A stretch of 61,978 bases of DNA, the filler included. It is 11 parts of 11 records of this genome, joined end to end, with 100 filler letters (N's around TTAATTAATTAA, not from the genome) between each part and the next. Parts side by side here need not be neighbours in the genome. Positions count along the whole stretch, not along the records: positions 5,899 to 11,010 come from SRR31147125_190327; 10 more parts are not named here. The stretch is one strand, 5' to 3'. The position numbers and the translations under genes were made by a program. A model generated the notes under the pieces. The model was not told the origin of the DNA, made no database searches, and was given only the letters and a program-made list of their open reading frames with translations. Shown here one piece after another: positions 9,540-11,010 of this stretch (its first letter is position 1; each line of letters begins with the position of its first letter).

Positions 9540-11010
9540 TCATGGCAGAATTCCATTGGTCATCTTCTGGTAAGTGTCATACTGCCGTGTGAAGAAGTTG
9601 TCACTACTCTGTGCTACAAGATCCTGGGGATAGGATTCAGAGACGGCACAGGAGATCTCGAATCAAACAACCCACCCGCACATATCCACGAATTGCCTTC
9701 TTGGGTGTTCCTCGCTTGGGGATGCGTTGACGAATGGATTCAATTGCCTGAAGTCCTCCTTGGAAGCAAGGAAGCTTGGAATCTAGGGTGGATGGATGTC
9801 AGAAGGGCAGGAGGTACGTCGGATCCTACCATTGTTGAACATCATCTCAATGGTAAGCATGATCTCATCACAGTGACGGCTTAGCGCCACCAGTCCTCTA
9901 TAGGAGGAGTGAGAGGGGGGGGGGGGATCGCGCCGTTGTGGGACGTACTGTGCAAGAAGGGCACGAAAGCGTTTCATCCCACGGCTTTCTTCTTCACCCA
10001 TCACGTCCATCATCTCTCGTGTGAGTTTGAATGGTGCCTTCTCAAATCCAGCACCTCCCGGGGTGTTGGAAATCATGAATCCAAAGTCGATGTGAATAAG
10101 GTGCTGGATCTCCATGAGAGAAAGGAACAGGAAAGGAACAGTGGGCACATGCACGCACTCCCTCGGAATCGATCAGTATGTTTCCATTGTGCCGATCCTT
10201 GATCTGCAGGACAAAGGTTACCAGGGACGAGGCAGCCATGCTTTCAATGAACGCTCTTTTGGCTTGCTTCAAGCGTCGCGTCTTGGCTCCGCCGTACGTC
10301 TGATGGGTGTGAGTGTGTGTGAGTGTGTGTAAGAGAAAGGCATGGCACAATGGATAGACGCGACGCCACGCACCGCCACAAAATAGTCACGAAGGCACGT
10401 GAATCCTTTGATCTTCTTCTTCAGAGAGTGCAAGGAGAGTGCATCAGGAATTGTTTCGATCAATCCAGAGTCTGCTGAGGTGGCAAGAATATGGTAGGGA
10501 CGAAGCCAGAGATGAGATGTGTACTTCATGAAGATTTCCTGAATTTGCCATATGAGCTGGCTGGCAAATTGTTCCTGGGAGGGTCAAAGCAGAAGAGCAT
10601 GAGATCATGCATCATGATACGGGAACGAACTTGACGGAGATCATCTCCTGCTTTCACAATGAGACACATGAGTCGTGAGGGAGGCTGTCAAGGAGAGTCA
10701 TGAGGTTTGGAGGAGGAAAAAAGAGGATATGCCATCCAGGGATCGTGCCGTAGGGAGAAGCAGCCCGAATCCGAGAGACTTTGATGAAAGAAGGGTGTCA
10801 CAACAACAACAACAACAACAACAGAGAAGACAACCTTTCTCCTCCCATCGCTCTCCAAACGCATTGTAGGAGAAATCACGATCTTCCACAAATACCCAGT
10901 CCTAGAATAAGAAAAAGGTTAGGGGTGTGCTCCTTTCTGTGCAGATACGTGCCTGTTCGGCTCCATCATCTCGAAGGAACTCCTCTTCTTCTTCCTCTTC
11001 CTCTTCTTCC
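9540..11010 (-). CDS. PI4KB: Phosphatidylinositol 4-kinase type III beta, C-terminal kinase domain, ~9 introns, 5' truncated
   Basis: Exons encode [61 protein letters not shown] and YDTYQKMTNGIL*. Confidence 0.9.
10675..10730 (-). other. U12-type (minor spliceosome) AT-AC intron, 56 nt
   Basis: TGG C|ATATCCTCTTTT...TCCTTGACAGCCTCCCTCAC|GA CTC; splicing restores conserved [16 protein letters not shown]. Confidence 0.88.

Follow-up and report, generated by a model that had tools for sequence, protein, structure and literature searches.

The locus described here raises two questions: whether the 56-nt interval with AT and AC termini that interrupts a PI4KB/Pik1-type kinase gene is an intron of the minor (U12-dependent) class, and what such an intron would say about the organism that carries it. 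The window that we analyzed comprises 61,978 bases and consists of 11 contigs of 5.0 to 6.8 kb (GC content, 0.43 to 0.60), which are separated by spacers of the form N44-TTAATTAATTAA-N44 (e.g., at 5799-5898 and 11011-11110). Only the first three pieces (1-16265) look eukaryotic. The remaining eight contigs (pieces 4 to 11, 16366-61978) are bacterial by their long and intron-less open reading frames (ORFs), and their content includes an RND efflux pump, the his operon, murA, and an HD-GYP regulator. Because the contigs are mixed, it is unsafe to draw conclusions from the window as if it were a single genome. For the same reason, a test proposed in the initial annotation, in which a near-complete genome bin devoid of minor spliceosomal RNAs would refute the assignment, does not fit a window of 11 unrelated contigs of which eight are bacterial. 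Coordinates of the features discussed below are collected in Table 1.

Table 1. Features of the eukaryotic-looking contigs, in window coordinates
Feature	Position	Strand	Details	Basis
Piece 2	5899-11010	minus	PI4KB-type 3' part and a multi-intron enoyl-CoA hydratase/3-hydroxyacyl-CoA dehydrogenase-like gene	Dehydrogenase-like gene by eye
Piece 3	11111-16265		Start of a DDX6-like gene, Rpn3, and a third gene without a family match	
PI4KB/Pik1-type gene, 3' part	9541..11010	minus	Cut by the contig end at 11010	tblastn, script, Pfam
Predicted U12-type AT-AC intron, 56 nt, phase 1	10675..10730	minus	Kinase domain of PI4KB, between the W and R codons	Sequence and script
5' splice site ATATCCT	10724..10730	minus	Next base C; 7/8 against the consensus [A/G]TATCCTT	
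Branch-point sequence TCCTTGAC	10687..10694	minus	Presumed branch A at 10688, 13 nt from the intron 3' end	
Upstream PI4KB exon, 48 nt	10731..10778	minus	Ends ...CCT GGA TGG C at 10731	
Downstream PI4KB exon, 44 nt	10631..10674	minus	Begins GA CTC ATG	
Candidate U12-type intron, GT-AG subtype, 61 nt, phase 2	15758..15818	plus	On the neighboring contig	Motif and codon-usage model

The interrupted gene is conserved. Once its nine introns are removed by script, 323 open codons remain, ending ...YQKMTNGILP; the other two frames contain 16 and 15 stops. In a tblastn search, residues 1440 to 1718 of Drosophila PI4KB (P0001) matched this region (E = 3e-36), and an exon search of 25 candidates returned the Drosophila protein alone. 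Three of the exons fall in colinear order on the Pfam profile PF00454 (positions 17-69, 124-158, and 162-208). We assign the gene to the PI4KB/Pik1 type on its catalytic domain, which carries GDDLRQE, DRHNGN, and HIDFG, together with a C-terminal tail that is colinear with PI4KB. One of the nine introns is AT-AC, seven are GT-AG, and one is either GC-AG or GT-AG. This last case, the first PI4KB intron on the contig (10902-10952, minus strand), is ambiguous, as both readings are in frame: the GC-AG reading (GCACGT..., 51 nt) leaves an acidic upstream frame, and the GT-AG reading (GTATCT..., 47 nt) leaves a basic one.

On the minus strand, the AT-AC interval opens ATATCCTCTTTT and closes CTCAC. 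Its excision joins TGG C|GA, giving W-R in phase 1, and Drosophila PI4KB aligns gap-free over the spliced junction and both flanking exons; if the interval is retained, the frame runs into a stop codon. We enumerated all 48 GT-AG, GC-AG, and AT-AC boundary pairs within 10778..10631 by script. The reading frame stays open with 10 of these, comprising seven GC-AG pairs, three AT-AC pairs, and no GT-AG pair. Each of the seven GC-AG pairs either loses conserved residues or retains residues derived from the intron, and two of the three AT-AC pairs are not colinear with Drosophila PI4KB. The pair 10730-10675 is the only one of the 48 that is colinear. This enumeration bears out the claim, made when the locus was first annotated, that no GT-AG pair restores the frame, and the donor, the branch A 13 nt from the intron end, the closing CTCAC, and the exon ends described at that time are all present.

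The splicing signals themselves are of the minor type. The donor octamer ATATCCTC (10730..10723) agrees at seven of eight positions with the minor-intron donor consensus [A/G]TATCCTT as given in excerpts of a preprint (bioRxiv 10.1101/2020.10.12.336362); the exception is position +8, which is C where the consensus has T. Minor introns show a bias against phase 0 according to excerpts of a comparative survey (Larue & Roy 2023, PMC10639083), so the phase 1 position of the PI4KB intron was counted in favor of the U12 class. The interval combines an extended donor, a TCCTTRAC element near the 3' splice site, and AT-AC termini at colinear boundaries, and the class assignment of the initial annotation, a U12-type intron in a PI4KB-type gene, withstands every check that can be made on the sequence. 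While the boundaries, motifs, frame, and homology are direct readings of the DNA, splicing itself and its dependence on the minor spliceosome are suggested by the presence of intact extended motifs in an intact conserved gene. We conclude that 10730..10675 is very probably a genuine spliceosomal intron of the U12-dependent class, AT-AC subtype.

We compared these signals with chance expectation and with the other introns on the same contigs. The 62-kb window contains a single match to the combined pattern ATATCCT-N20-50-TCCTTRAC, against 0.01 matches expected; the pattern was matched in 1 of 100 shuffles. Taken alone, the branch-site motif at its 3' spacing shows no enrichment in the window (6 found versus 4.76 expected), while the donor-branch pair is above chance; what counts as evidence is therefore that the two occur together, on the coding strand and exactly at the boundary that restores the frame. 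On both strands of pieces 1 to 3, a strict TCCTTRAY follows within 160 nt at 2 of 29 RTATCY sites, namely 10730 and 15758. Other donor-like sites were set aside. The GTATCC at position 6198 of the minus strand falls 4 nt into a GTGCGT intron and, by reading, disrupts the frame when used as a donor; GTATCT at 10948, also on the minus strand, is the alternative donor of PI4KB intron 1 and has neither the CC nor a canonical branch site; RTATCCY sites on the bacterial contigs are irrelevant as U12 donors.

A set of 22 introns with fixed coordinates was checked by script, comprising those of PI4KB, DDX6, and Rpn3 and the second candidate described below. The 20 PI4KB, DDX6, and Rpn3 introns other than the AT-AC intron are 43 to 74 nt long; 19 are GT-AG and 1 is GC-AG, and their donors follow a loose GTNNGT pattern (GTGCGT, GTACGT, GTTCGT, GTGGGT, GTGTGT, and so on). 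TCCTTRAC is absent from all 20, and the U12-type motif is therefore not a general intron signal of this organism. The dehydrogenase-like gene on piece 2 adds about 20 introns that were mapped by eye, all of which start with GT. At 56 nt, the AT-AC intron falls within the 43- to 74-nt range and is of ordinary size for this genome.

A rare class of AT-AC introns is removed by the major (U2-type) spliceosome, and the PI4KB intron could belong to it, in an organism lacking the minor spliceosome. Such a reading would accommodate the pyrimidine-rich 12 nt that follow the branch site, and it agrees with the failure of Rfam searches to match any snRNA gene in the window (gathering thresholds) or in 1..16265 (E-value mode), a result that is uninformative for 16 kb. 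To our knowledge, however, neither the extended ATATCCT donor nor a TCCTTRAC branch site is a feature of U2-type AT-AC introns. The PI4KB intron has the two elements at canonical spacing and is sharply unlike the 20 U2-like introns on the same contigs, and we therefore regard removal by the major spliceosome as very unlikely.

If the U12-type reading is correct, removal of the intron would follow the established model of minor splicing, which we infer to apply in this organism. The U11 snRNP would pair with the ATATCCT 5' splice site, and U12 would pair with TCCTTGAC, leaving the branch A bulged 13 nt upstream of the 3' AC. U4atac/U6atac.U5 would then catalyze intron removal, and ligation of TGG C|GA to W-R would restore the kinase frame.

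Two further explanations concern the integrity of the gene and of the contig. The motifs might be merely historical, either in an interval that is not spliced or in a relic within a decaying gene copy (a pseudogene), and the contig does carry only the 3' part of PI4KB. Against this, the termini are intact in 9 of 9 PI4KB introns, all 323 codons are open to the conserved C terminus, and the catalytic motifs score against PF00454; the intactness of the extended motifs argues for ongoing selection, and a relic seems highly improbable. We attach just as little weight to an assembly or sequencing artifact, whether a chimeric contig or an intron whose true termini are GT...AG. Although the assembly that yielded the contig is mixed and of metagenome type, an artifact of the termini would need two separate substitutions, one at each intron end, and the donor and branch site would stay U12-type even with GT-AG ends. 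Moreover, a single colinear gene spans the exons on both sides of the intron, and parts of the contig are present in two runs, apparently of DNA, from one study (word shares of 0.30 and 0.19); the runs listed for the contig included none of RNA.

The neighboring contig carries a second U12-like candidate. The interval at 15758..15818 reads GTATCCGC...ATCCTTGAT...CACCAG, or in summary GTATCC...TCCTTGAT, with the branch A again 13 nt from the 3' end, and lies in a gene that starts with ATG at 15009. The pattern GTATCC-N20-50-TCCTTRAY has one match against 0.03 expected and was found in 3 of 100 shuffles. Excision fuses two ORFs in phase 2. When codon usage was modeled on the PI4KB and Rpn3 coding sequences, the frames joined by the candidate score +20.9 and +20.8 bits, versus -16 to -48 for the other frames. 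By reading, a U2-type alternative with a GTGTAT donor at 15756 and an acceptor at 15837 (82 nt) is in frame too.

Database searches suggested no clear family for the candidate's gene: a weak DNA-PKcs_N hint (E = 0.17) falls below the Pfam cut-off, phmmer found nothing in PDB sequences, and the Atlas gave no usable match. A search of 1.84 billion proteins with a 70-amino-acid exon yielded two matches (P0124 and P0125), which were rejected as tandem-repeat ORFs with units of approximately 60 to 70 residues; translation of satellite DNA, rather than homology, is the most likely origin of these matches. On balance, we favor the interpretation of 15758..15818 as a second U12-type intron, with less assurance than for the PI4KB intron. 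Pieces 2 and 3 are alike in GC content, intron sizes, donor pattern, TG/CA microsatellites, and codon usage, which is cross-predictive. If the two pieces derive from the same organism, the candidate would lend independent support to a U12 system.

Minor introns are ancient and patchily retained. The canonical U12 AT-AC introns of animals and plants have the same features as the PI4KB intron: AT-AC termini, a phase other than 0, an [A/G]TATCCT donor, and TCCTTRAC approximately 10 to 15 nt from the 3' end. They differ in size and setting, as animal U12 introns are hundreds to thousands of nucleotides long, whereas the PI4KB intron spans 56 nt in a protist and its dependence on U11 and U12 is predicted from sequence. 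Among microbial eukaryotes, excerpts of the comparative survey list minor introns in Acanthamoeba, Protostelium aurantium (n = 265), Pelomyxa (n = 90), Physarum (>20,000), Phytophthora, Saprolegnia, and Blastocystis and report them as absent from Ochrophyta, Alveolata, and Discoba (PMC10639083). In this survey, the amoebozoans other than Physarum (Acanthamoeba, Protostelium, and Pelomyxa) and the oomycetes (Phytophthora and Saprolegnia) are free-living protists whose minor introns show the same canonical motifs.

The nearest parallel in size is Blastocystis sp. ST1, a microbial eukaryote that likewise has short AT-AC minor introns; in the survey excerpts these have a mean below 42 bp and a median of 39 bp, are 77% AT-AC, and are the shortest of the species compared (PMC10639083). 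The initial annotation had singled out the handling of very short minor introns as notable, a point that does not survive this precedent and the ordinary length of 56 nt among the introns mapped here. Blastocystis differs in that its minor introns lean toward phase 0 and its introns measure approximately 30 to 40 nt according to the same excerpts, compared with 43 to 74 nt and a U12-type intron in phase 1 here, and nothing ties the PI4KB contig to Blastocystis.

A second point of comparison is Physarum polycephalum, which in the preprint excerpts has ATATCC and GTATCC donors, a TTTGA branch motif located 9 to 12 nt before the 3' end, and a U12 that has co-evolved (bioRxiv 10.1101/2020.10.12.336362). 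The organism studied here resembles Physarum as a protist with ATATCC and GTATCC donors but differs from it in that both introns have the canonical TCCTTGA[C/T]. The proximity of a second U12-like intron raises the possibility of a higher minor-intron density, as in Physarum. Our tally stands at one sure and one candidate U12-like intron among the 22 mapped by script, or among approximately 50 when those read by eye are included. Outside Physarum, the reported ceiling for minor-intron density is roughly 0.5%. Given how the window was selected, one extra candidate among 22 (or approximately 50) introns is compatible with ordinary densities, and we see only a slim chance that an uncultured protist lineage outside the sampled groups has an unusually high density of minor introns with canonical motifs. 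If it did, its density would exceed that ceiling, and the lineage would be enriched in minor introns independently of Physarum, the second such case, with an unchanged branch-site motif.

We next turn to the identity of the host. Among the matches listed, the best identities are 60% for a PI4KB exon and 69% for an Rpn3 exon; over the full Rpn3 alignment the best is 64% in 340 columns. The closest named or nameable Rpn3 matches among those listed are amoebozoans (Balamuthia at 65%, dictyostelids, and Acanthamoeba), along with clusters that include Cavostelium and Vermistella; chytrids, oomycetes, a glaucophyte, and Pigoraptor come next. Rpn3 trees were built from a 340-amino-acid model, using 67 of the 120 listed matches plus the window sequence; the rows comprised all named matches and the unnamed ones ranked 70 or better, with lengths of 330 to 599 amino acids. 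In a second tree, two long-branch rows were dropped, and a longer sequence from the same cluster took the place of one row.

The window sequence forms a lone long branch in both trees. Although several of the best listed matches are amoebozoan, the Rpn3 tree places the window inside neither Amoebozoa nor oomycetes, and in a quick PMSF tree it falls outside the amoebozoan-containing clade (SH-aLRT, 96). An AU test gave no support for a grouping of the window with Amoebozoa and did not reject it either (p = 0.095). The host is an intron-rich microbial eukaryote that the Rpn3 tree does not place in any of the sampled groups.

We also searched for related loci and for an intron at the same position. 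A scan of metagenomes yielded 21 related PI4K loci, all at 60% identity or less. No intron was found at the W|R position in any of the 21, a result of little weight because most are ciliate-like or intron-less: 14 look like ciliate-type genes with in-frame TAA/TAG, and 5 are contiguous at W|R. Neither the exon protein nor the exact intron had a match among the genome contigs searched. A full-text search returned no paper that combines PI4KB with "minor intron," although supplementary tables might list such a case, and PI4K is not mentioned in the main text of PMC11347168.

The PI4KB AT-AC intron is genuine but unremarkable, a further case of an intron class that is well known. It leaves current knowledge of minor splicing unchanged, as earlier work has already described both protists with short AT-AC minor introns and a patchy retention of the minor system. 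It adds one data point, namely, an intron-rich protist, known only from environmental contigs, that probably still uses the minor spliceosome. In practical terms, gene callers limited to GT-AG introns would break this conserved kinase gene, and an intact ATATCCT...TCCTTGAC intron could serve as a cheap marker of minor-spliceosome retention in fragmentary eukaryotic bins.

Several features of the related loci and of the eukaryotic-looking contigs are recorded here in their own right. In the 14 ciliate-type PI4K loci (L004, L005, and L008 to L019), SPDNLTQE replaces GDDLRQE. Two others, L020 and L021, carry a GC-rich PI4K gene that is repeatedly broken by runs of CCCTAA, a telomere-like repeat (e.g., L021:443-617). 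These runs are flanked by direct duplications of 10 to 17 nt and look like repeat-derived introns or insertions; one such insertion is situated within a few codons of the PGW position.

Within the window, three PI4KB introns in succession measure exactly 56 nt each (10834-10779, 10730-10675, and 10630-10575, minus strand), the middle one being the U12-type intron; they are separated by exons of just 48 and 44 nt. On the plus strand of piece 3, one Rpn3 intron ends in a tandem acceptor, CAAG AAG (14466-14472), whose two sites are both in frame and one lysine apart. Finally, an ORF of over 1,100 codons runs without introns on the minus strand of piece 1 (2451-5798); it encodes DUF4215 cysteine-rich repeats (PF13948, E = 5e-21), as well as a long stretch rich in Ser, Thr, and Pro.
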